Part shown: piece by piece, positions 1,853 through 40,203 of the stretch
Numbering within the stretch: the first letter of the stretch is position 1
Layout of the letters: every line of letters begins with the position of its first letter
Assembly: GCA_017414645.1 (NCBI GenBank)
Contig: JAFQLL010000017.1
Location: 6,057 to 70,056 of the forward strand
Length of the DNA: 64,000 nt
Direction: 5' to 3'
Source: Clostridia bacterium
Lineage (GTDB): Bacteria > Bacillota > Clostridia > UMGS1883
Made by a program: the position numbers and the translations under genes
The notes under the pieces: generated by a model
The model's input: only the letters and a program-made list of their open reading frames with translations
The model's database searches: none
What the model was told of the DNA's origin: nothing

Positions 1853-3085
1853 ATGGAATTTAACAGAGTGAAGAATGCTGACGTAGAGTTATACGAGGCT
1901 ATGAGCCGCGAAATTAACCGTCAGAAGAACAAAATTGAATTAATCGCTTCCGAAAACTTTGTTTCCGAAGCTGTTATGGAGGCTATGGGCAGCCCCCTCA
2001 CAAATAAATATGCTGAAGGCTATCCCGGTAAGAGATATTACGGCGGTTGCGAATATGTTGACGAGGTTGAAACCATCGCCATTGAAAGAGCAAAGGCGCT
2101 CTTTGGTGCAGAGCATGCAAACGTTCAGCCCCACAGTGGTGCACAGGCTAACATGGCTGTGTTCTTTGCCGTTCTTAACCCCGGCGACACAGTTTTATCT
2201 ATGAGCCTTGCTCACGGCGGTCACCTTTCTCATGGTAGCCCTGTTAACATGAGCGGTAAGTACTTTAACATTGTGCCCTACGGCGTAACAGAAGAAAACC
2301 AGACAATTGACTACGAAGAAATCCGTCGTCTTGCATTGGAATGTAAGCCCAAGCTTATCTTAGCAGGTGCAAGTGCATATTCAAGAGAAATTGACTTTAA
2401 GAAGTTTAGTGAAATTGCAAAGGAAGTTGGCGCATATTTCATGGTTGACATGGCGCACATTGCAGGCTTGGTTGCTGCAGGCGTTCATCCTTCTCCCGTG
2501 CCCTATGCCGACTTTGTTACAACAACAACCCACAAAACACTCCGCGGTCCCCGTGGTGGTCTTATCCTTTGTAAGGAAGAGCATGCAAAGGCTGTTAACA
2601 AGGCAGTTTTCCCCGGCATTCAGGGTGGCCCCTTAATGCACGTTATCGCCGCAAAGGCAGTTTGCTTCAAGGAAGCTGCAAGCGACGAATTCAAGGCTTA
2701 TCAGCGCCAGATTGCTAAAAACGCAAAGGCACTCAGTGAAGCTCTTCTTGCTAAAGGCTTTGACCTTGTTTCCGGCGGCACCGACAACCACCTCATGCTT
2801 GTTGACCTTCGTCCCTTCAAGGTTACAGGTAAGGAATACGAGCACCGTCTTGACGAGGTTGGTATTACAGTTAACAAAAATGCAATTCCCTTCGACCCCG
2901 AAAAGCCCGGCGTAACAAGCGGTATCCGTGTTGGTACACCTGCTGTTACAACACGTGGTCTCAAGGAAGAAGACATGGTTGAAATTGCAGAATTAATGTA
3001 TCTCACAATTGCAGAGTTTGACACAAAGCAGGACGAAATCCGTGCAAGAGTAAAGGCTCTTTGTGACAAATATCCTTTGTATTAA
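1853..3085 (+). CDS. glyA: Serine hydroxymethyltransferase
   Basis: 410 aa; PLP-lysine motif [14 protein letters not shown]; full-length SHMT layout. Confidence 0.97.
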
Positions 3086-3117
3086 AAAGCTCTGCTTTTT
3101 AATACAGTGCAGAAGTG

Positions 3118-3284
3118 GTGAAGTTTTTGCTTATGCAAAAGTGAAGTTGTTCGTTTCACTCACAGTGAAGTTTTTATTGCATAAAAGTGAAGTTAAGTTT
3201 GAACTTCGGCGTAAGCCGAAACTTCACTCGCGAAGTGAACTTCACTATCGAAGATAACTTCGCTTGCCGACAGGCAAACTTAGT
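3118..3284 (+). repeat. GTGAAGTT/AACTTCAC 'ladder' element, copy 1 (candidate structured 3'-UTR RNA)
   Basis: Four GTGAAGTT at 3118, 3141, 3165 and 3187. Central hairpin TTCGGC-GTAA-GCCGAA. Complements AACTTCAC at 3220 and 3238, degenerate at 3256 and 3277. Small side hairpins lie between octamers. A second copy is at 21515-21683. Confidence 0.75.
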
Positions 3285-3313
3285 TGTCAGCAGAGCTGAC
3301 AGAGGTGATTTTT

Positions 3314-4570
3314 ATGAGCAGTCCTTTGGCAGACAGAATACGTCCTGACAGCCTGGATTTGGTTGTAGGTCAGCATCATTTGCTGGGCGAAGGAAAGGTA
3401 TTACGCAACATTCTTGAATCGGGTAACATTCCTAACATGATTTTTTACGGCCCCAGCGGTGTTGGCAAAACAACCGTTGCAAACATTGCGGCAAAAAGGG
3501 CAAACAAGCGTCTTTTCAAGCTCAATGCAACAACTGCCTCCGTTGCCGATGTAAAGCATGTTGTAGAGGAGTCCGAAACACTTTTCGGCACAGACGGTGT
3601 GCTTTTATATCTGGACGAAATACAGAACTTTAATAAAAAACAGCAGCAAAGCCTTCTGGAATGCATTGAAAACGGCAAGGTTACCCTCATTGCATCAACT
3701 ACCGAAAACCCCTATTTTTATGTATATAACGCCATTTTGTCACGTTGTACAGTGTTCGAATTCGAGCCTGTTGGCCCCAAGGACATTTGCGAGGCAATTG
3801 ACAGAGCAACCCATCTTTTAGGCGAGGGCGTTGTAATAGAAAATGATGCAAAGGAGCATATTGCAAATACCTGTTCTGGCGACGTGAGAAAGGCTCTTAA
3901 CACTCTTGAGGTTGCATCTCTTACAGCAAAGGCAGACGAGAGTGGCAAGCGCTTGATTACCTTAGACATAATTGAACAGGCAACAAGAAAAAAAGCCTTC
4001 CGCCACGACCGTGACGGCGACGACCACTACGACGTTTTGTCCGCTTTCCAGAAGTCTGTACGAGGAAGCGACCCCGACGCGGCACTTCACTACATGGCGC
4101 GCCTTTTAACAGCAGGGGACCTGCAAAGCGTAACAAGGCGCATTCTTGTTATGGCAGCCGAAGACATTGGTCTTGCGTACCCTAACGCAATTGTAATAAC
4201 AAAGGCATGCGTTGATGCGGCGCTGCAGCTTGGTCTGCCCGAAGCACGCATCCCTCTTGCCGAAGCTGTTATAATGCTGGCAACTGCGCCGAAGTCAAAC
4301 AGTGCAATCTGCGCTATCGATGCTGCCATGGCAGACATAGCCTCCTCCGACACAGGCGAGGTGCCTTATCACTTAAAGGACAGCCACTATAAAGGTGCTG
4401 AAAAGCTTGGCCATGGTCAGGGCTATAAATATCCTCATTCTTATCCTAACCACTATGTGCCACAGCAATATCTGCCCGACAAAATTAAAAACAAAAAATA
4501 CTACACCTATGGCGACAACAAGATGGAGCAGGCAACTGAAAACTATTGGAAGAGTGTAAAAGGAAAATAG
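3314..4570 (+). CDS. rarA: Replication-associated recombination protein A (AAA ATPase)
   Basis: Walker A GPSGVGKTT and an MgsA/RarA-type C-terminal domain. Start set at ATG 3314 behind RBS AGAGGTG; the track ORF begins at an upstream TTG. Stops at TAG 4568-4570. Confidence 0.92.
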   Translation: MSSPLADRIRPDSLDLVVGQHHLLGEGKVLRNILESGNIPNMIFYGPSGVGKTTVANIAAKRANKRLFKLNATTASVADVKHVVEESETLFGTDGVLLYLDEIQNFNKKQQQSLLECIENGKVTLIASTTENPYFYVYNAILSRCTVFEFEPVGPKDICEAIDRATHLLGEGVVIENDAKEHIANTCSGDVRKALNTLEVASLTAKADESGKRLITLDIIEQATRKKAFRHDRDGDDHYDVLSAFQKSVRGSDPDAALHYMARLLTAGDLQSVTRRILVMAAEDIGLAYPNAIVITKACVDAALQLGLPEARIPLAEAVIMLATAPKSNSAICAIDAAMADIASSDTGEVPYHLKDSHYKGAEKLGHGQGYKYPHSYPNHYVPQQYLPDKIKNKKYYTYGDNKMEQATENYWKSVKGK

Positions 4571-30875: not shown

Positions 30876-31871
30876 TCACCATACTTTTTCATGAACAGTG
30901 CCGTTTGTATTAATTCGATACAACTTGTCATCTATATTGTAAAAATAAACCCAATCATCTATAATGTTAATTCCGTTTCGAGCAACCTTTATATTAGAAA
31001 GTTTTTGTTCTAAAGTTCCGTCCGTTTTAATTTTGTATAGATTAGAATCTTTTTCTTTAACAAAATATATCCAATCATCTTGAATATTAAAATTACTGCA
31101 CTGGTCATAAGTTATTTGAGAATACTGTAGGGAATCAATATCTATTTTAGCAATACCATAACCTTTTAGATGGCCGGAAATAAAATACATATCATTGTCA
31201 ACAAACAAAACATTGTTTTTAGAAAGTTGCTTTAAATCCTCATCGAAATCAATACTTTTGATAACATCTCCATCTAATGACAAAAGTAAAATGTTATTAG
31301 ATTCTGTATAGATTATGTTATCAATAATATTAAATTCATCTACGGCAAAAGTTGTAAGTTGAGTAATTTCCGTTCCGTCATATTTTGCCTTGTACAAGCA
31401 ATTTGTAGGGAAACTTTCGCAATTTGTATAGTAAATCCAACCATCATATGCGATTAGTCTATGTGTGGTTATGCCTTTTATTTTAGACATCGTATTAGTT
31501 TTTAAATCTCGACAATAAAGCGAGGGGGGAGAAAAACCACCCCAACCTTCGTATCGAATAATGAACATTAAATCCCCAACCACATTAAGATTGATACCGC
31601 TTTTGATTCCTAAAGTTGCTTGTTTCTTACTGCTTTCATTAAAAGCATATGAGTGGAAAAATTCTTGACAATATATCCATTCACCTTGCTTTGACACAAA
31701 AGCATTGTTTGCAATATTTCCGTTTGTATTGCCTGCAACATTCTCTTGTGCCAAATCTATGCTGTTGATAATATGTTTATTTTTAATGCTAATGTAAAAA
31801 CAAACAACAATTAGAACAGCAATAAATAGACATATAATAAATAGAAATATTCGGCGATAATCTTTCTTCAT
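30876..31871 (-). CDS. Membrane-anchored beta-propeller repeat protein (DUF5050-like); candidate immunity/accessory protein
   Basis: N-terminal TM helix. Repeated D(D/G)W(I/V)Y(F/Y)...LY(K/R)I..(D/N)G blades. GGAGG RBS 20 nt after the RHS stop. Confidence 0.75.
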   Translation of the reverse strand: MKKDYRRIFLFIICLFIAVLIVVCFYISIKNKHIINSIDLAQENVAGNTNGNIANNAFVSKQGEWIYCQEFFHSYAFNESSKKQATLGIKSGINLNVVGDLMFIIRYEGWGGFSPPSLYCRDLKTNTMSKIKGITTHRLIAYDGWIYYTNCESFPTNCLYKAKYDGTEITQLTTFAVDEFNIIDNIIYTESNNILLLSLDGDVIKSIDFDEDLKQLSKNNVLFVDNDMYFISGHLKGYGIAKIDIDSLQYSQITYDQCSNFNIQDDWIYFVKEKDSNLYKIKTDGTLEQKLSNIKVARNGINIIDDWVYFYNIDDKLYRINTNGTVHEKVW

Positions 31872-31891
31872 TCATTTGCCTCCTGTTACAA

Positions 31892-34800
31892 TTAGTAGTT
31901 AGAATTGCCAAAGATTTTAACAAGACTTTCGTGCAGAGCTACGGGTATAATTTCTGTTATTGAGGGATATTCCCACATTTTTTGAACTTCTCCCCAAAAC
32001 CCTTCGTATTTTGAGAAATCTCCGTCGTATAGAATTTCCATTGATTTCGTTGCACATGAGCTACCAACTGCAAGATAGATTTCATCATCCCAGTCGAATT
32101 TGCCGTTGTTTTTTTCTACATCGTTTTGAGCATGTTCGATAGATTCTGTAAAGTCACCTTCAATATAGACACTTTTATCATAATTATTAAACGAATTTTC
32201 ATCATGTACACCAGAGGCAACCAGCCATTTATTAAGATCATCAATATTATCAAGAGGATATATTACGGTTCCATCGCTCATAGTATATGAATCTGGTACT
32301 TCTACTAAAATCACAGTTGCAGTCCAAATCGGCATTCCGCTTTGACTTGGACCAAAATAGTAATAACTCCATTTTCCAGTGCTCTCATCTTCTAACAAAA
32401 GAGATGTGTGCCCCAGCCCACCAACTGCAGTAGATGCAGTTATTACTCGTGCATCTAACCCACTCGGGTCAACAAACGCAATGGGGTTATTACTACAATA
32501 CACATACCAGTTCGTTCCGTCCTTGATGGGGTCAACGGAAATGAAGCGACCTATTGAGGGGTCATAATAACGTGCACGAAGGTAAATGTCGCCTGTTTCG
32601 TTGTCGAGATATTCACCTGCATAGCGGAACGGGTTTGTATCGGTTGACCTTTCTCCCTGCCATATTTCACCAAAGGGAGAATAGTAATAATTCTGCACAA
32701 TGGGATATTTAACACTGGCGGTGTTTAAGTCCATAAAGTCAAACTCACCATCGCAGTTCAAATCCATCTCGGGGAATGGTGCAGCAGAGCCGTAGAAGGG
32801 TGAAAGATACAAATCAACACTGTCGATTGCCATGGTGTGAACAACGTTGCCTCTGCCGTCATAGGCGTAAAATTCGTGATAGCCGTTGACGGGAACAACA
32901 GTTTCAACATAATCGTCGAGGGTTTCGTCATAATAAGAGTCAATAAATGCATTGTAGGTGTATGCATCGCCCTTTACAGTACGGGAAACACGGTTAACAC
33001 CGTAGAAATAGTCTGTTGACTTGTCAGGTGTTTCCTCGCGGACAATGTTGTCGCCAGCCCAGATGAAGGAAGTGGTTACACCGTTTGCTGTTTTGCTTGT
33101 TCTTAAAGAAGAAGCATTGTAGGTGTAGGTATATGTTCCGCTTTGGGTTGTAACGGATGCAACCTCGTTACGTGGTGTGTAGGTATACTGATAAGTAACC
33201 GAGTCGTTAAGCTTGGCAATGGTGTTGCCGTTTGCATCGTAGCGGTACTCGGTAACGTTGCCTGCTGTGTTTTCGCTTGTTAAGCGGTGATTTGTGTAGG
33301 TATAAATAGTTGCTGTGGAAACGTTTTCGGCATCTGTTACGGTCTGGCTTGTGCGGTCACCACGATTGTTGTAGTTGTAGCCCCATGTGCGGACACGCGC
33401 GCCGTTGTTGGTTGTGTTTGCAATTGTAAGGCGGTTGGCAGCATCGTAGCCATAGATGGTGTCGTAGGTGGTGCTGCCGCGTGTGTCGGACACGGTTTTC
33501 ACATTGCCGTCGGGGTAGTAGGAATACACAAAGGATGAAAACTCGCGTATATCATTGTAGCCTTCTTCGTATGTGGGGTCATTGACAAGGCGACGGCTAT
33601 GGGTAGTGGATTTCATTAAATTACCGGGAGTGTATTCATACTCGGTAATAAGTCCGCTCTTTTCCTCGGTTGTGGGGAAGCCGTTTTCGTTATACTCATA
33701 CACTACAGTGTCAACACCATCGGAGGCAGAGGTCATATTGCCAAGGATGTTATACTCGTATGTATTGGTTTGCAGTGTGGTAGTGCCCTTTTTAAGGAGC
33801 ATGGTTTCAACCTGCCCTGCAGTATTATATGTACGGAGTATGGAATTATCCCCTGTAACCTCTGATATGTTACGACCAAAGTTGTCGTATGCATAGGTTG
33901 TGGCAACATTGTTACGGCTTGCCAATGTAATGTAATTGAAGGAATTGTATTCATATTCAATCACGTCGCCTGCTACAACAGATTCTAAAAGATTGCTTCT
34001 TGAATCGTAGGTGTTATACGTAACCTGGCCCTTGGGGTCGGTTGTTGTAAGTGTGTTGCCTGCAAGGTCGTAGGTGTAGGAGGTTGTGCCGTTAAAGGTT
34101 GTTTCGGATATAAGGTTGCCGAAGTTGTCGTATGCAAAATCAGTAACATTATAGGTTGAATTAAGGGGCGTAAGCTCAGAAATGTCAGTTGTTGAGCTCT
34201 CTAAGCCTGACACCGTTTTTACGAGCTGATTGCCGTCGTATTGGTTAACTGTGTAGGTTGAACCGTTAAAGGACGATACAAGGCGGTTGCGGTTGTCATA
34301 AGAATAAGTGTATGCAACATCGCCTGCTGCCGCTGAAACAACTGTTTTGACAGTATTGCCGTTAGCGTTGTAATAATAGCTTGAAAGGCCTGTTACATCA
34401 GTATCAACAGGGGCTGACTTGGTGAGCATACGACCGATGGAGTCATAAGTATAGGTTGTGGTGTTACCCATGTAGTCTGTTGTTGAAAGCTGTCTGCCTA
34501 ATACGTCGTAAGTGTTGGTAATGTAATTTTCATCGGCATTATATGCCTTAATTACCTGGTTATTATAATTATACTCGTATTTCTGCGAATAGTCAACATC
34601 ATAATCTGCATAGGCAGCTTCGTCCTTGTATTCAAGCACGTTGCCAAGGGCATCGTAGGTATAGGTAGCAATATACTCATTATCTCCGTCGGTTGTGATT
34701 TGCTTGCACAATCTTCCTTGGCGGTCGAGGTATTGCTTCACCGTGGGAGGAGTGATGCCGTCCTTTGGTGTTGATTCTACGGTGACAGAAGTGAATTGAT

Positions 34801-37465
34801 AATAAGAGCCACTATTGTAGTTGTCGTGTGCCCATGAAGGACTTGATGTGTTAAGGGTTGTGAGTCTGTCGACTGTATTGTAAGTGTAGGTTTGCTTTGA
34901 CAATTCTGTTCCGTTTTCGTCGAAAGCTGCGACCTCGGAAACATTGTCAAGGGCACCATAGGTGTAATGGGTTTCAATCCATTTTGTGGGTAATTTGCGA
35001 GTGTTATAACCGGTGTATTGTACCATTACAGAAGGACGGCAAAGTGCATCGTATTCGTATTCAGCTACAACAATCCAACGAGGATTTGTTGTGGTGGCTA
35101 CGTTTTTGTATGTTGCAAGCACGTTGCCGAATGCATCGTAAAGTGTTTTCTTCATTATGCCGTTTTCATCTGTCACAATGGTTGTACGATTCAATGTGTC
35201 ATAGGCATAAGTGACGGTTGTATCGTCGGGATTAATTACTTTTATAAGGCGACCTAAAAGGTCGTATTCGTAAGCTGTTTCGTTGCCGTTTCCGTCTGTT
35301 GATGAAATGAGCCTGCCGTAACGGTCGATTGTAGTTGATGTAGTAATATTGGCGACGGAATTGTTTTCAGCATCTTTTATGTTGTTTGCAATGGCAGTTG
35401 TTGTTATACTGCCGTTTGCAGAGTAAGTATAGGTATAGGTTGTAACCTGATTAATGCCGTCGGGGTCAACAGTACTGCTTGAAAGTGTTCCGTCGGGATT
35501 GTAGGTGTATTCAACAGTATACTTGTCGGTATAATTGTCGCCACCATCTGTTGATTCGGACACGGTCATTGAATCAATTGTTCTGCCGGTATAAAAATCA
35601 TCGCCTTCTTCTGAAAGAGTATATGTAGTTTTTACAAAAACATCTTCGGTTTGGTTGTAAATTTCGCTTTCCACAAAACTGCTGTCATCAAAATACGATA
35701 TGGTTTTTTCGTAGTCGTCGTGTGCAATACGGCTGGGGCGGTTAAGAGAATACCTTGTGTATATATTTCTTCCTCCGTCAATGCGTGAACCGTTATCGAA
35801 AAACTGTTCTGTGCGAATACGCTTTCGGTTTAAATAATGATATTCTTCACTATACTCTTCGTCTTCGAAGGCTATTGTCATATCAGATACGCGATATTCT
35901 CCGTTGTAGGTATATGTTTGTCCGTCGGCGGTTCTTGTTGCAATTGAATAGTTTCCGGGGGAGTACGTGTAGGTGAAATGATTGAATGTATCGTTGTTGT
36001 CAAGGTCATACCGCTCTGAAACGGAATATGTTTCCTTCTTTGTGGAGTTTTTTATGTTGCGAGACCTCGAATAATTGTAGGTAGATACTAATCCGTTGGG
36101 ATGAGTAACTTGTTTAACAATTTCGCACTCAATAGGAACGTGGTGAGTGTAATCTCCCATGGTGTACCATGCCTGATGATATTTTGAATATTTAAAGCTT
36201 TTTGTATATTCGGTCGTTGCGTTTTCATATCTGATGATACTGCTTGTGCAATCGTCGTCAAAGGCAAATACGTTTGTTGTGTCTTCAACACTGTTTGTAC
36301 GGGTATTTTTAAATTTAGCGTGTAAAGTGGGAGTTGCGGTTGAGTTTTCTGCCACGTATATTGACACATCGTTGTTGCTGTATGTGAATGTTATTTTACG
36401 TCCCAAGGTGTCGGTAATGTCTAAAATGCGACCCTTTAAACCACTCATTTCTTCAAAGGTGTATTTTATCATATTGCCGAAACGGTCCTCTGCTGCGCAT
36501 AAAAAGCCTTCCTGTGTAAAAAACATGGTGCGACCTGAGCTGTCAGTGATCGAGCAACGGTATGTTATGCCTCTTTGCTCGTCAACAATATCTTCGCCTG
36601 TATAATAGCCTGTGTATTCACCGGGGCAGTCTGCAAAAGTTACAGACAAATTAGATATTGCATCATTTGACTTCTTTTTACGGTACTTTATTGTAAGCTC
36701 ACAATATTCTCCGTCCAAGTCTACAAAAGCACATGTTTGCTTATAATAATTGTAGGTGCTGTCATAATCATAGCGCGTGGGATAGATTACATCCGTTATA
36801 ACAGGAAGATTCCACTTCCATATGTCGGAGAAGTTAAGCCTTTCCGTGTTGGAATCCATTTGTGTTAATATGGTATTTTCTTCCCAGCCAATAACAACCG
36901 GAGCCATGTCTGTATCTCTGGTCAAAAGAATATTGTTTTCAATTGTGTTCAAGTTGGAAAGCCAATGAAATTCTATATCGAAATCATCGGTGATTGCTGC
37001 CGTGGGTATAGATTTTACATAAAATGAATTTAGCCCGACGGACGATAATTCTTCCTCGTAATATGGTGCAATTAATATGTATTTTGTAGTGTCATTGTCG
37101 TCATAGGAGTAGTAATAAGCATATTTAAAAAACTCGCCAAGATATCTTGTGCTGCCTGTGTATAAGCCAATGCCTATTTCGTTACTGTTATATGTAGCAG
37201 AAAGATTAACGTCAAATCCATTTTTGCCGGGCAAATGAAGAATGTTTTCCGAAAGCAAAAGCGAACCATCGGTAGGAGCAATGTATTCTTCAGGGAAATT
37301 TTCTTTGCTGTAAGGGCTGTTGTAGCCTACAGGGTCGCTGTTCTGTATGAGTTCAGCCACCTGCGCGGAGGATAATGCCGCTGATGTTGACTCTGCCGAA
37401 GCCGGAAGTGAAATTAAAAAAATAAGTAATACAATGAGGGCAATCAAATAAAGGCATTTTTTCAT
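31892..37465 (-). CDS. RHS/YD-repeat polymorphic toxin, 1857 aa
   Basis: Signal peptide; many YD repeats (YxYDxxGNxx). RHS core end YDPSIGRFISVDP...NPIAFVDPSGL, followed by a 187-aa tail. Confidence 0.93.
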   Translation of the reverse strand: MKKCLYLIALIVLLIFLISLPASAESTSAALSSAQVAELIQNSDPVGYNSPYSKENFPEEYIAPTDGSLLLSENILHLPGKNGFDVNLSATYNSNEIGIGLYTGSTRYLGEFFKYAYYYSYDDNDTTKYILIAPYYEEELSSVGLNSFYVKSIPTAAITDDFDIEFHWLSNLNTIENNILLTRDTDMAPVVIGWEENTILTQMDSNTERLNFSDIWKWNLPVITDVIYPTRYDYDSTYNYYKQTCAFVDLDGEYCELTIKYRKKKSNDAISNLSVTFADCPGEYTGYYTGEDIVDEQRGITYRCSITDSSGRTMFFTQEGFLCAAEDRFGNMIKYTFEEMSGLKGRILDITDTLGRKITFTYSNNDVSIYVAENSTATPTLHAKFKNTRTNSVEDTTNVFAFDDDCTSSIIRYENATTEYTKSFKYSKYHQAWYTMGDYTHHVPIECEIVKQVTHPNGLVSTYNYSRSRNIKNSTKKETYSVSERYDLDNNDTFNHFTYTYSPGNYSIATRTADGQTYTYNGEYRVSDMTIAFEDEEYSEEYHYLNRKRIRTEQFFDNGSRIDGGRNIYTRYSLNRPSRIAHDDYEKTISYFDDSSFVESEIYNQTEDVFVKTTYTLSEEGDDFYTGRTIDSMTVSESTDGGDNYTDKYTVEYTYNPDGTLSSSTVDPDGINQVTTYTYTYSANGSITTTAIANNIKDAENNSVANITTSTTIDRYGRLISSTDGNGNETAYEYDLLGRLIKVINPDDTTVTYAYDTLNRTTIVTDENGIMKKTLYDAFGNVLATYKNVATTTNPRWIVVAEYEYDALCRPSVMVQYTGYNTRKLPTKWIETHYTYGALDNVSEVAAFDENGTELSKQTYTYNTVDRLTTLNTSSPSWAHDNYNSGSYYQFTSVTVESTPKDGITPPTVKQYLDRQGRLCKQITTDGDNEYIATYTYDALGNVLEYKDEAAYADYDVDYSQKYEYNYNNQVIKAYNADENYITNTYDVLGRQLSTTDYMGNTTTYTYDSIGRMLTKSAPVDTDVTGLSSYYYNANGNTVKTVVSAAAGDVAYTYSYDNRNRLVSSFNGSTYTVNQYDGNQLVKTVSGLESSTTDISELTPLNSTYNVTDFAYDNFGNLISETTFNGTTSYTYDLAGNTLTTTDPKGQVTYNTYDSRSNLLESVVAGDVIEYEYNSFNYITLASRNNVATTYAYDNFGRNISEVTGDNSILRTYNTAGQVETMLLKKGTTTLQTNTYEYNILGNMTSASDGVDTVVYEYNENGFPTTEEKSGLITEYEYTPGNLMKSTTHSRRLVNDPTYEEGYNDIREFSSFVYSYYPDGNVKTVSDTRGSTTYDTIYGYDAANRLTIANTTNNGARVRTWGYNYNNRGDRTSQTVTDAENVSTATIYTYTNHRLTSENTAGNVTEYRYDANGNTIAKLNDSVTYQYTYTPRNEVASVTTQSGTYTYTYNASSLRTSKTANGVTTSFIWAGDNIVREETPDKSTDYFYGVNRVSRTVKGDAYTYNAFIDSYYDETLDDYVETVVPVNGYHEFYAYDGRGNVVHTMAIDSVDLYLSPFYGSAAPFPEMDLNCDGEFDFMDLNTASVKYPIVQNYYYSPFGEIWQGERSTDTNPFRYAGEYLDNETGDIYLRARYYDPSIGRFISVDPIKDGTNWYVYCSNNPIAFVDPSGLDARVITASTAVGGLGHTSLLLEDESTGKWSYYYFGPSQSGMPIWTATVILVEVPDSYTMSDGTVIYPLDNIDDLNKWLVASGVHDENSFNNYDKSVYIEGDFTESIEHAQNDVEKNNGKFDWDDEIYLAVGSSCATKSMEILYDGDFSKYEGFWGEVQKMWEYPSITEIIPVALHESLVKIFGNSNY

Positions 37466-38385
37466 TTTTTAAGCACCTCTTTTTCTGTAAGTGCATCGAT
37501 GGTTTTTGCTGTACAATCAGGTTGTTTAAGTGCATTAAAAATATCTAATTCACTATAACCGCTGTCAAGAAGTTCTGTTATTTTTTCTTCTGTAATGCCA
37601 TCCTTTTCAGCTTCTTTTACCATTGCGTTAAAGTTGGGGCTCTTTTTTCCCTTCCAATAGCCTTTTTCTTTAAGGATGGAATTTACTTTTTTTGCATTTT
37701 GTTCAAAATAAGTATTTGAATTATCTGTGAGAAGTATGGTATTAACTGCGGTAGCTTCTTTTACATTTGATTCAGCAGTCACTTCTTTTGAAATGGAAAT
37801 TTCTATTTTTTCAAGGTTTATGCCCGAAAGGCGTGCATCAAGAATTTCCTGTATTGTCATAACAGCTTTACGGCTCAAAAGATTTGCCTGCATTATGTCG
37901 TCAACTGACAAGCCTTTTTCTAAATAGGCAACCACATCGTCCTCGGTGAGAACACCACATTTGTTATTTGTGATTTTGTTAAATGCATTTTCAAATACAA
38001 CATCGCGGTTTGTTATTGGTTCTCCATTATAAACCATGTCGTAAATTTGCTTTACGATGGATATGGGCTCATTGGTTGTGAGATAAAACTGATATATGTC
38101 CATTGTTGTCTGTGGATCACAGCCTGATAATATCATTTGTTCGATAAAGGAAAAGGAATCCTCCGTGGGACAATATCGACCTAAAAAGAGGGCAGTTTTA
38201 TGGAAAGAGTGAAACGCCTCTTCGGTATCATAGCCCATGTAATTTGCCAAACGGTCAAAGGACGGGGCAAATTCATCTGCAGGTTTTACAATAGGCTCTA
38301 AAGTGAGTGAGCCGCTTGCCATTGCGACAGTTGCAATAGTAAGCAACGTTACCATAGCAATAACCACCATAAGTTTATTTTTCAT
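37462..38385 (-). CDS. Secreted helical-repeat protein, unknown function
   Basis: Start set at ATG 38385 behind AGGAGG; signal peptide. The stop overlaps the RHS start (ATGA). Confidence 0.65.
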   Translation of the reverse strand: MKNKLMVVIAMVTLLTIATVAMASGSLTLEPIVKPADEFAPSFDRLANYMGYDTEEAFHSFHKTALFLGRYCPTEDSFSFIEQMILSGCDPQTTMDIYQFYLTTNEPISIVKQIYDMVYNGEPITNRDVVFENAFNKITNNKCGVLTEDDVVAYLEKGLSVDDIMQANLLSRKAVMTIQEILDARLSGINLEKIEISISKEVTAESNVKEATAVNTILLTDNSNTYFEQNAKKVNSILKEKGYWKGKKSPNFNAMVKEAEKDGITEEKITELLDSGYSELDIFNALKQPDCTAKTIDALTEKEVLKK

Positions 38386-38486
38386 GTTTTTCCTCCTGTG
38401 TAACAATTTTTGTGTGCGAATATAGCTTTCGGTGTAGCATTTATTAAAATGGTTTTTCCCGAAAGCTATATTCCGCCATTGTGGAA

Positions 38487-38921
38487 TTACTTGTATTCCA
38501 CAATGTTGCTTGTGTCGTAAAAGGCTTCAACTTGATTTCCATCGGCATCGTAAGCGATGTATACGTTCATCAAGCGGTAGTCGTAACCCTTTTCAACCTG
38601 GTAAGTTTCGTCGAATGTTACATTGGTTGAGTCTGTGCCGTTCCAGGACTGTACGGTTCTCCACATGGAGCCCTTTTGTTGCAGTTGCATTACAAGGCGC
38701 ACGGTGTAGCCTGCTCTGACGCTTACAGAACCATAACAGCTTGCTATGCCTGATGAACTGATGTCGAACGAATAACTTGTTCTCGTAATTGCAACGTTAT
38801 AAGGCGTAGCTTCTGATGACTGGTAATCAAATTGTTCAGTTGCCATTGCAGAGATACATGAAGAACATGAAATCATACATAATGTAGCTATAAGTGCAAT
38901 TACCCTTTTAATTTTTAACAT
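38487..38921 (-). CDS. Small secreted beta-rich protein, unknown function
   Basis: Start set at ATG 38921 behind AAGGAGG; signal peptide ending SAMA. Confidence 0.6.
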   Translation of the reverse strand: MLKIKRVIALIATLCMISCSSCISAMATEQFDYQSSEATPYNVAITRTSYSFDISSSGIASCYGSVSVRAGYTVRLVMQLQQKGSMWRTVQSWNGTDSTNVTFDETYQVEKGYDYRLMNVYIAYDADGNQVEAFYDTSNIVEYK

Positions 38922-38989
38922 AAAAACACCTCCTTTCAATCGTGTCTGTATATATAACGATTGAAAGGAGGTGAAGTGGACAAGATTTT

Positions 38990-39673
38990 TCAATTTTTTT
39001 TCAAATTTTTTGAAATTTTTTCAATTTCTTCCTTTGTAAGGTTGCCGCAAACGTGATAAGAATATTCGTTGTCGTTCCATATTATCTGGTTGAGGTCATC
39101 CTTAAATATGCCTACAGCGTCGTAGCCCTGAATAGTGAGCTGTTCAATCGAGGCATTTTCAGTGTCGGTATTAAACTGCAAATCTAAATCACTTATCGTT
39201 ATTTGTAAGAACAAATCTTCCTTAAAAAAATTAAGAAAAAATTCTTTACTTGAGACAACCTTCTTTTGAAGCTCAAAGCCTTGGGGAAGGTAGGATAGGG
39301 TTACATCTTCATCGGTGTAGCTTCCATGGGCAGAGTCTGTAAAAAGCACATCACTGTTGGGGGCATTTTCGTTGTAAATAAGCTTTATAAATTTTGTGCG
39401 CCAGGCTTTTACGCTGCATATTGAAACGCTTGCCAGCATAAGTGCAACAAGGCACACACATGCCGCGCGCTTGGCATAGGTTATGAAATTGCTTTTTAAA
39501 CGGGCTTTGTTTGCTTCTTTAAAAAGCTGTTGCATTTTTTCTTCATGCTCTTTGGAAAAGCTTGCTTCGGACGCACCTGATTGGCAATCGCAGTCTTTTT
39601 CGGCAATGGCGGTAAGTGCTTCGTCAATAATTAAATCAAGGGCATTTTCAAAAGCGTTATTCTTATCCATCAC
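38990..39673 (-). CDS. Anti-sigma factor-like membrane protein (DUF4367-type extracytoplasmic domain)
   Basis: Cytoplasmic N-terminus, one TM helix, extracellular domain. 4-nt overlap with the ECF sigma gene. Confidence 0.7.
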   Translation of the reverse strand: MMDKNNAFENALDLIIDEALTAIAEKDCDCQSGASEASFSKEHEEKMQQLFKEANKARLKSNFITYAKRAACVCLVALMLASVSICSVKAWRTKFIKLIYNENAPNSDVLFTDSAHGSYTDEDVTLSYLPQGFELQKKVVSSKEFFLNFFKEDLFLQITISDLDLQFNTDTENASIEQLTIQGYDAVGIFKDDLNQIIWNDNEYSYHVCGNLTKEEIEKISKNLKKN

Positions 39674-40203
39674 TGTACATCCTCCTTTGCAAGCTGTTTT
39701 TTTATTTCGATTTTTGCACGTTGCAAGCGTTTGGTCACAGCTTCTGCGGATATGCCGAAAAAGCTTGCAATGTCGGCTCTGCTCATGTCATACACCCGGC
39801 TTAAAATAAGAGTGTCGCGGTATATGGGGTTCATGTTGTTTACTATATCCATTATCCTGCGGACACTTTCGCTGTCTATGGTTATGTCCTCGGGGGTGGA
39901 GTCTGCTACAAACTCAACCTCTGACATGGTTAAAACTTCGCGTTTTCTTTTGTTGTAAATATCTATTGCAATGTTGCGGCAAACAATAACAAGAAAATTG
40001 CGAATGTGAGAGCTGTTTTCTGTTTTTATCTTGTCAAGGTTTTTTATTATGCGCACAAAAGCCTCGCTCACAGCATCCTCAGCGAGCGATTGGTCGTTCA
40101 ATATTGCATAAGCTTCGTCGTACATGAAATTGCGGTACGTGTAGTACAGCTTTTCTACCTTTGTTTGTTTTTTCAAGGGCATCTTCTCCTTATTAACCGG
40201 CAA
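39670..40203 (-). CDS. ECF-type sigma-70 family sigma factor
   Basis: Region 2 (AEDAVSEAFVRII...FLVIVCRNIAIDIY) and region 4 (ADIASFFGISAEAVTKRLQRAK). Confidence 0.88.
   Translation of the reverse strand: MPVNKEKMPLKKQTKVEKLYYTYRNFMYDEAYAILNDQSLAEDAVSEAFVRIIKNLDKIKTENSSHIRNFLVIVCRNIAIDIYNKRKREVLTMSEVEFVADSTPEDITIDSESVRRIMDIVNNMNPIYRDTLILSRVYDMSRADIASFFGISAEAVTKRLQRAKIEIKKQLAKEDVQ

Follow-up and report, generated by a model that had tools for sequence, protein, structure and literature searches.

In a 64,000-nucleotide stretch of DNA from a Clostridia bacterium of the UMGS1883 lineage (the window; assembly GCA_017414645.1, contig JAFQLL010000017.1, positions 6,057 to 70,056), an RHS/YD-repeat protein ends in a 187-residue domain that we assign with high confidence, on the basis of sequence profiles and a predicted structure, to the circularly permuted NlpC/P60 papain-fold cysteine hydrolases, the group of TseH, Tox-Act1 and DUF4105/Lnb. 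Taken alone, the placing of its action outside the cytoplasm is very probable, and the gene that follows encodes an anchored beta-propeller that is the probable antidote, or immunity protein, of the domain. The picture as a whole, in which the RHS protein delivers a permuted NlpC/P60 toxin that works outside the cytoplasm through lipid acyl-ester chemistry and is held in check by the propeller, is one that we regard as moderately probable. The parts of the RHS gene on which the argument turns are the following.

31892..37465, reverse strand: intact RHS/YD-repeat protein of 1857 aa with a predicted Sec signal, the presumed carrier or cage of the toxin (from the open reading frame list and translation)
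32456..32683, reverse strand: RHS repeat-associated core domain, residues 1595-1670 (TIGR03696, E 1.9e-25, model positions 1-76 of 76)
31895..32455, reverse strand: C-terminal toxin domain of 187 aa (protein residues 1671-1857), predicted permuted His-then-Cys NlpC/P60 papain fold, TseH/Tox-Act1-like
32408..32410, reverse strand: codon of His16 (protein residue 1686), putative catalytic histidine, invariant in 39/39 sequences
32153..32155, reverse strand: codon of Asp101 in a Y-I-x-G-D-F motif, candidate third active-site residue, conserved at 90% or more in the close family
32054..32056, reverse strand: codon of Cys134 (protein residue 1804), putative nucleophile, invariant in 39/39 sequences

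The RHS carrier and its C-terminal domain

The reading frame of the RHS gene is uninterrupted over its 1857 codons, and its product opens with a hydrophobic signal segment (residues 4-22 by hydropathy) followed by PASA|EST, suggesting export by the Sec pathway. The repeats match PF05593 (RHS_repeat) in 10 stretches at E 1.4e-38 in Pfam, and the TIGR01643 YD repeats of NCBIfam match as well. The TIGR03696 core match stops exactly at ...NNPIAFVDPSGL, the DPSGL boundary; read over a longer stretch, the C-terminal end of the core is ...RARYYDPSIGRFISVDPIKDGTNWYVYCSNNPIAFVDPSGL. The protein thus has the make-up of an RHS/YD-repeat polymorphic toxin, namely repeats, a core ending in PxxxxDPxGL and a variable C-terminal domain directly after it. 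By analogy with the known behaviour of RHS cores, DPSGL would be a self-cleavage boundary ahead of the toxin. An earlier note on this DNA, made by reading the sequence, had placed a tail of 187 residues after DPSGL at 31895-32455; the translation (DARVITAS...GLGHTS...GSSCATK...GNSNY) agrees exactly with the sequence quoted there.

When 1.84 billion cluster representatives were searched exhaustively with HMMER (E<=1e-3), 44 proteins matched the tail, mostly RHS C-termini or short contig fragments. Two repeat proteins among the matches were set aside, and the alignment used below, A1, holds 39 domains. In the RHS-borne relatives the domain comes after ...DPxG(L/T/E) and opens with D-A-I-x-I-T. 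Mean column identity in A1 is 21%, and only five columns are invariant (H16, W29, G100, Y127 and C134), with G15, Y31, D101 and P171 conserved at 90% or more; the consensus runs G-H-T-S-L-L ... W-Y-Y-F-Y-W-G ... Y-D-x-x-V-Y-I-x-G-D-F-S-x-S ... Y-x-L-x-x-x-N-C-x-Q-x-S ... I-P-N. Because they are two of just five invariant columns at so low a mean identity, the conservation of H16 and C134 is not a matter of chance. The earlier note had singled out this same pair, as a conserved-looking His followed about 115 residues later by a Cys; the spacing is 118.

The family is present in 18/400 sampled genomes of the class and 13/216 genera. The tail is single-copy in the window's own genome (an assembly of 2.1 Mb in 112 contigs, 89% complete), and in a collection of 5.8 billion proteins P0005 was the sole other full-length RHS protein with a close tail (71% identity in the tail). 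A word-indexed protein search with the A1 alignment matched just two short proteins, and a search of genome contigs with the tail alone found no related locus. At loci L006-L010 and L020 many family members are orphan cassettes, short open reading frames in which the toxin is preceded by no more than the final 56-206 residues of an RHS core and behind which a partner gene lies; some of these cassettes precede another RHS fragment, as in arrays of displaced tips. One relative, P0016 (290 aa), is a short protein in which the toxin domain has no RHS carrier but is joined to a wall-binding SH3_3 (bacterial SH3) domain at the C-terminus.

Two lines of evidence connect this family to TseH. The sole Pfam match of the tail is the sub-threshold one to PF25218, 'Type VI secretion system effector TseH-like' (E 1e-4, 22.7 bits), in which residues 9-137 of the tail align with positions 30-153 of the 167-position model. 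Among the 39 family members, 11 match PF25218 at E<=0.01 (best E 8.9e-6) and one matches PF13387 (Lnb_N). The second line is structural. An AlphaFold2 model of the tail built with A1 as its alignment (mean pLDDT 88.1, pTM 0.88) was compared with the Protein Data Bank (PDB) by Foldseek, a check that the earlier note had suggested, and the crystal structure of TseH, 6V98, was both the top match and the sole significant one (E<0.01), with E 1.9e-3 and probability 1.00 (TM 0.54/0.55 over 185 aligned columns, 183-residue chain); the second-best PDB match had E 0.46. Profile and fold, two independent methods, thus agree on one specific family. In the model, four N-terminal strands are followed by a helix, a strand, a helix and the C-terminal helices; His16 opens strand 16-22 and Cys134 opens helix 134-142. 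A nucleophile at the N-terminus of a helix is a hallmark of the papain fold. The earlier note's guess at a permuted papain or NlpC/P60-like hydrolase is therefore well supported.

The order of the putative catalytic residues points the same way. His precedes Cys in all 39 sequences and also in a distant subfamily from the same bacterial class, which reads A-Y-Y-L-N-D-x-x-G-A-x-x-x-G-H ... N-C-D-Q ... I-P-N. In hhalign this subfamily aligns with A1 at a probability of 98.5% (E 3e-15); the G-H and N-C motifs of the two coincide, H16 and C134 falling on its invariant His and its invariant N-C. Its members give weak matches solely to LRAT, Lnb_N, TseH and PPPDE, all of them His-first papain-fold families. 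The subfamily occurs at L013-L015, L017 and L021-L027 (genomes G048, G111, G272 and G348, one genus), in up to 6 copies per genome. At those loci it is not RHS-borne and instead ends proteins that combine PG_binding_1 with a long charged linker; polytopic membrane proteins are encoded directly downstream of these, and at some loci, for example L023 and L025, the genes form arrays that also include orphan toxin fragments and additional immunity-like genes.

Other identities were considered for the tail. It does not have the features of a canonical NlpC/P60 peptidoglycan hydrolase, as the order is His then Cys and PF00877 gave no match at E<=1. The 2012 census of polymorphic toxins lists papain-like families with Cys-first signatures and 'Tox-HDC', with H, D and C (PMC3482391, Zhang et al. 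2012); the H...D...C order of the tail resembles the latter signature, but a Pfam family of that kind was absent from the matches at E<=1. Pfam and NCBIfam gave no nuclease, deaminase or ADP-ribosyltransferase family at this threshold either, in agreement with the earlier note, which had recognised none of these signatures by eye, and NCBIfam and PADLOC scans gave nothing meaningful. A viral structure library contained no significant match to the model; two entries were no more than suggestive of the H-box/NC group, namely a fragment of a picornavirus polyprotein (probability 0.96, TMq 0.38) and an LRAT from a giant virus (E 0.8). A tetratricopeptide repeat (TPR) identity was rejected. Designed TPR proteins were the only matches among PDB chains, through a spurious likeness of Y-x-x-G-D-F-x-E-S-x-E-Y to the TPR consensus. 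The stretch concerned, tail residues 85-121 (window ~32093-32203), has a Y-I-E-G-D-F-x-E-S-x-E-Y-A motif that mimics the TPR helix consensus and draws designed TPRs at E 1e-3, a trap for annotation from sequence alone.

Site of action and substrate

Evidence on where the toxin acts comes from the genes that follow it. We surveyed the gene after each family member in the 18 genomes of the class that carry the family (among the 400 sampled), and 24 partners were readable. All 24 carry at least one strongly hydrophobic segment, be it a lipoprotein signal or one or more transmembrane helices, and they fall into 13 groups without BLASTP similarity to one another. The types include: (i) small proteins of 109-135 aa with 3-4 transmembrane helices; (ii) larger polytopic proteins of 250-290 aa; (iii) proteins of 205-229 aa with a single N-terminal helix and an ecto-domain; (iv) proteins of 324-414 aa with a single helix and propeller-like repeats and (v) lipoprotein propellers of 288-293 aa with weak PD40/DUF5050 matches. 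Since membrane or exported proteins make up about a third of bacterial proteins, membrane location in 13/13 unrelated partner types is far beyond chance. Furthermore, the first strand of the tail begins one residue past the cleavage motif, with no linker, pre-toxin or translocation segment between. The membrane location of all partner types and the absent translocation segment together lead us to see the toxin as acting at or on the membrane, outside the cytoplasm. The earlier note had described the partner as extracytoplasmic, in keeping with a toxin that acts on the envelope, and both points gain from these results.

We consider it highly improbable that the tail is instead a protein-directed cysteine peptidase or a toxin acting in the cytoplasm, with the TseH match reflecting a generic papain-fold resemblance. 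Such a scenario would draw on the moderate quality of the fold match and on the fact that RHS repeats are usually fused to cytoplasm-acting effectors (PMC12994826), but it must contend with partners that are all membrane-located or exported, with the lack of a translocation or pre-toxin region, with a sequence profile and a fold that both select one specific family and not papain folds in general, and with the many RHS-fused members in the list of Tox-Act1 homologs (PMC12994826). That supplement already has RHS repeat-associated proteins from Lachnospiraceae, Ruminococcus and other Bacillota (PMC12994826). RHS-borne permuted NlpC/P60 toxins, some from gut Clostridia among them, are thus already catalogued although none has been studied, and the window tail is an uncharacterised addition to them.

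The RHS architecture itself has a well-known counterpart in the WapA-type toxins of Bacillus subtilis, which are Sec-exported RHS proteins with a variable C-terminal toxin past a conserved core and a downstream immunity gene. The window protein resembles them in being a Gram-positive RHS protein with a signal peptide, a variable tip and a downstream gene. WapA toxins, however, are tRNases that enter the cytoplasm and are matched by small cytosolic immunity proteins, whereas the cargo and the partners described here indicate action outside the membrane.

There is precedent for lipid-directed toxins in the superfamily to which we assign the tail. The NlpC/P60 superfamily comprises canonical Cys-first peptidoglycan peptidases and circularly permuted His-first lipid-acting enzymes, and the permuted members (YaeF/YiiX-like, LRAT-like) are described as lipid-specific (PMC12994826). 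Tox-Act1 of Salmonella is toxic in the periplasm only, requires H43 and C151, cleaves phosphatidylglycerol (PG) and phosphatidylethanolamine (PE) to lysolipids and leaves a sacculus-like ghost with the sacculus intact; its immunity protein, Imm-Act1, has two transmembrane segments (PMC12994826). For TseH, with the catalytic pair H64/C172 (Lnb preprint 10.1101/2024.05.31.596883), two assay formats were used, and phospholipase activity was seen with liposomes only, at pH 8.9 only (PMC12994826). DUF4105/Lnb is a lipoprotein N-acyltransferase (Lnb preprint 10.1101/2024.05.31.596883; also PMC12994826). The His-Cys spacing is 108 in TseH and Tox-Act1, 99 in Lnb and 118 in the window tail; a third polar active-site residue is Glu81 in TseH and Asn66 in Lnb, and no counterpart was identified in the window tail.

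The likeness to each of these has its limits. TseH (VCA0285 of Vibrio cholerae) shares with the tail the sole significant fold and Pfam matches, the His-before-Cys order and a similar spacing, and it too is an antibacterial toxin that acts outside the cytoplasm and has a downstream immunity gene. Identity to the window tail is 17%, however, with the Pfam score under the family cut-off, and TseH is a free type VI secretion system (T6SS) effector of a Gram-negative bacterium, whereas the tail is the C-terminus of a presumably Sec-exported RHS protein of a Gram-positive one and has as its partner a transmembrane-anchored seven-bladed propeller. Tox-Act1, going by its published description, is likewise a permuted NlpC/P60 toxin with a His and a Cys and a membrane-located partner, although Imm-Act1 is a small two-transmembrane protein where the window has a propeller, and the phospholipase activity shown for Tox-Act1 can be ascribed to the window tail by analogy only. 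The N-terminal periplasmic domain of DUF4105/Lnb (PF13387) and LRAT/HRASLS (PF04970) resemble the tail in their permuted papain fold and its His...(N)C signature, and members of the tail's family give weak matches to their profiles. Their substrates, at the surface of the membrane, are the acyl esters of lipids or lipoproteins. They differ in being housekeeping acyltransferases and not toxins, and the window tail itself matches neither at E<=1.

Our reasons for proposing a lipid acyl-ester substrate lie in what has been published on the permuted group and in the polytopic membrane proteins among the partners, and by analogy with the work on Tox-Act1 and TseH we favor phospholipid acyl-ester hydrolysis over peptidoglycan cleavage, a choice that the earlier note had left open. 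In the sequence of events that we envisage, the RHS shell would be exported via Sec, cut itself past DPSGL and retain the 187-residue domain, which would be freed at a neighbouring Gram-positive cell. The toxin would then work from outside on the outer face of the cytoplasmic membrane, with Cys134 as nucleophile and His16 as general base. Its likeliest chemistry would be the cleavage or transfer of fatty-acyl esters on membrane phospholipids, lipoproteins or lipoteichoic-acid anchors, giving rise to lysolipids and lysis. The producer and its siblings would be protected by the co-transcribed partner, the anchored propeller most likely binding and blocking the toxin on the outer membrane face. 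A more specific variant, which we think unlikely, is that the toxin is no plain phospholipase but a deacylase or transacylase of Gram-positive surface lipids (such as lipoprotein or lipoteichoic-acid anchors) delivered by an RHS cage that has no need to cross a membrane, with membrane-anchored propellers as a new, recurrent immunity class that would cap the toxin at the membrane surface. Propeller partners do occur in at least four unrelated partner types, two of them established (the transmembrane-anchored DUF5050 protein and a PD40/DUF5050-like lipoprotein) and two propeller-like from sequence only; the latter description applies to the partners at L008/L020, which share just the last blade motif with the window propeller.

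Several observations weigh against the lipid-directed, TseH-like toxin that we favor. The PF25218 score of 22.7 bits lies below the gathering cut-off of 27, and by Pfam's threshold the tail is a remote relative of that family and not a member. The fold match to 6V98 is moderate (TM 0.54, 17% identity, rmsd 7.2 A), and TseH was not recovered from PDB chains either by sequence search or by a profile search with the 39 members. At two points the window tail departs from the family, with Ser-Cys in place of Asn-Cys and Pro-Val in place of Pro-Asn; the three closest relatives also carry Ser or Gly ahead of the Cys. The GDF motif of Asp101 is not kept in the distant subfamily, and this residue is a candidate third catalytic residue only. 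Finally, the wall-binding modules fused to relatives (SH3_3 in P0016, PG_binding_1 in the distant subfamily) form a pattern that would also be expected of a peptidoglycan hydrolase, though they could equally be devices for retention at the surface.

These same modules bring in what we see as a genuine if minority possibility, namely that fold and extracytoplasmic site are as proposed and the substrate is peptidoglycan, the tail being an endopeptidase or amidase that cuts stem peptides, as was first proposed for TseH and as has been shown for Tse1-like canonical NlpC/P60 toxins. Membership of the NlpC/P60 superfamily would fit, and the wall would presumably be the first layer met by an external toxin in a Gram-positive target. 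What makes us prefer lipids is that His-first members are described as lipid-specific and Cys-first ones as the peptidoglycan peptidases, and that Tox-Act1 spares the sacculus (PMC12994826); in addition, many partners are small polytopic membrane proteins, which suit a target at the level of the membrane better, and the tail has no match to the canonical NLPC_P60 Pfam family.

The propeller partner and exchange of the module

The gene downstream of the RHS gene, and the signals around it, are as follows.

30876..31871, reverse strand: partner and probable immunity protein of 331 aa, N-terminal membrane helix and seven-bladed DUF5050 beta-propeller predicted to face outside
31879..31884, reverse strand: AGGAGG ribosome-binding site, 7 nt before the partner ATG and 7 nt after the RHS stop codon
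30744..30768, reverse strand: terminator-like hairpin and T-run closing the operon past the partner gene (10-pair stem with 7 GC pairs, then TTTTT)

The partner gene starts 20 nt past the RHS stop. Its product matches PF16472 (DUF5050) at E 2.5e-30 in Pfam and has an N-terminal hydrophobic helix (residues 8-26 by hydropathy, 3-36 in the AlphaFold2 model). The remainder of the model (pLDDT 91.9) is beta structure throughout, and of the PDB entries it matches best the seven-bladed propeller 3S25 from Eubacterium rectale (TM 0.71/0.79). The earlier note's extracytoplasmic partner can thus be described more closely as an N-terminally anchored propeller.

DUF5050 relatives of the partner are numerous (264 matches), mostly 25-30% identical and most of them not near toxins, and just three other variants are at least 54% identical to it. 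The subfamily so defined lies directly downstream of a window-type tail in 4/4 variants and was found nowhere else: the variant in L001 adjoins the full RHS protein P0005, that in L108/L109 adjoins a tail fragment ending ...IFGNSNY and that in L110 adjoins one ending ...IFSNARY.

Comparison of scaffolds indicates that tail and propeller travel together. Between the window and L001 the RHS cores are ~25% identical globally (33% in the best local alignment), whereas the tails are 71% and the propellers 59% identical, and the genes upstream of the two RHS genes are unrelated. The core has a GC content of 0.41-0.49, against 0.355 for the tail and 0.30-0.345 for the partner. The locus L019 (G276:C67, reverse strand), from the same genus as the window, has an RHS core near-identical to the window's over its last ~50 residues, up to ...NNPIAFVDPSGL; past DPSGL it continues with a ~60-residue helical linker, a permuted NlpC/P60 tail of the distant subfamily (GAGHTATILV...NNCDHKTA) and then a 288-aa lipoprotein propeller. 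Judged from these alignments, L019 and the window are the two sides of a natural tip swap between sister species. The tip and its downstream gene are thus found swapped as a module between differing scaffolds, and this textbook exchange of tip plus immunity (L001, L019 and the drop in GC) is our ground for regarding tail and propeller as a cognate pair.

It is quite unlikely, in our estimation, that immunity is encoded elsewhere and that the DUF5050 propeller instead serves as a receptor at the surface, helps to dock or release the RHS protein or is a neighbour without any connection to it. The thought arises because DUF5050 is a very common surface domain of Bacillota without a known immunity role, most of the 264 relatives lying away from toxins, and because a DUF5050 propeller is a component of a variant type VII secretion system (PMC11217815). 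It is hard to square with a subfamily that occurs solely after window-type tails, with the swapping of the propeller together with the tail between unrelated RHS scaffolds, with its occupying the slot that other membrane proteins hold in the other 12 partner types, and with a ribosome-binding site of its own 7 nt past the RHS stop. We therefore keep to the propeller as the probable antidote of the tail.

Two side observations concern the surroundings of such modules. In two unrelated genomes, L003 (reverse complement, 1863-2600) and L019 (reverse complement, 2964-3332), a similar protein is encoded right past the toxin-partner module, reading MSR(L/I)AR..(G/S)..YH(I/L)(V/L)FRGVN(K/Q)Q.IFEEEAD(Y/F)...; it resembles a REP-associated/IS200-type tyrosine transposase and might help to mobilise modules. 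Upstream of the window's RHS gene (37462-40203, reverse strand) lie four genes, which encode an extracytoplasmic function (ECF) sigma factor (Sigma70_r2/r4), an overlapping DUF4367 protein, a 168-aa open reading frame and a 314-aa signal-bearing protein whose stop codon overlaps the RHS start. The last of these was considered as a part of the exchanged module and rejected, as it has no similarity to the gene upstream of the RHS gene in L001.

Implications for RHS toxins and their immunity

Standard annotation leaves the tip of this RHS protein blank (Pfam is sub-threshold, NCBIfam and PADLOC give nothing), and the present analysis supplies it with a fold, a putative catalytic pair and a probable site of action. 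The TseH/Tox-Act1 group has so far been studied only as cargo of the Gram-negative T6SS; here it would be found also on Sec-exported RHS proteins of gut Clostridia, a clear case of an RHS protein whose cargo acts on the envelope and not in the cytoplasm. The question of lipid versus peptidoglycan as substrate is still unsettled for TseH itself, and a Gram-positive member of the group would be a useful second system in which to address it.

Less expected is that the partner is a seven-bladed propeller, and that partners of the propeller type recur within this toxin superfamily. Surface beta-propellers that act as the antidote of their toxin are a type undescribed for the TseH/Tox-Act1 superfamily.

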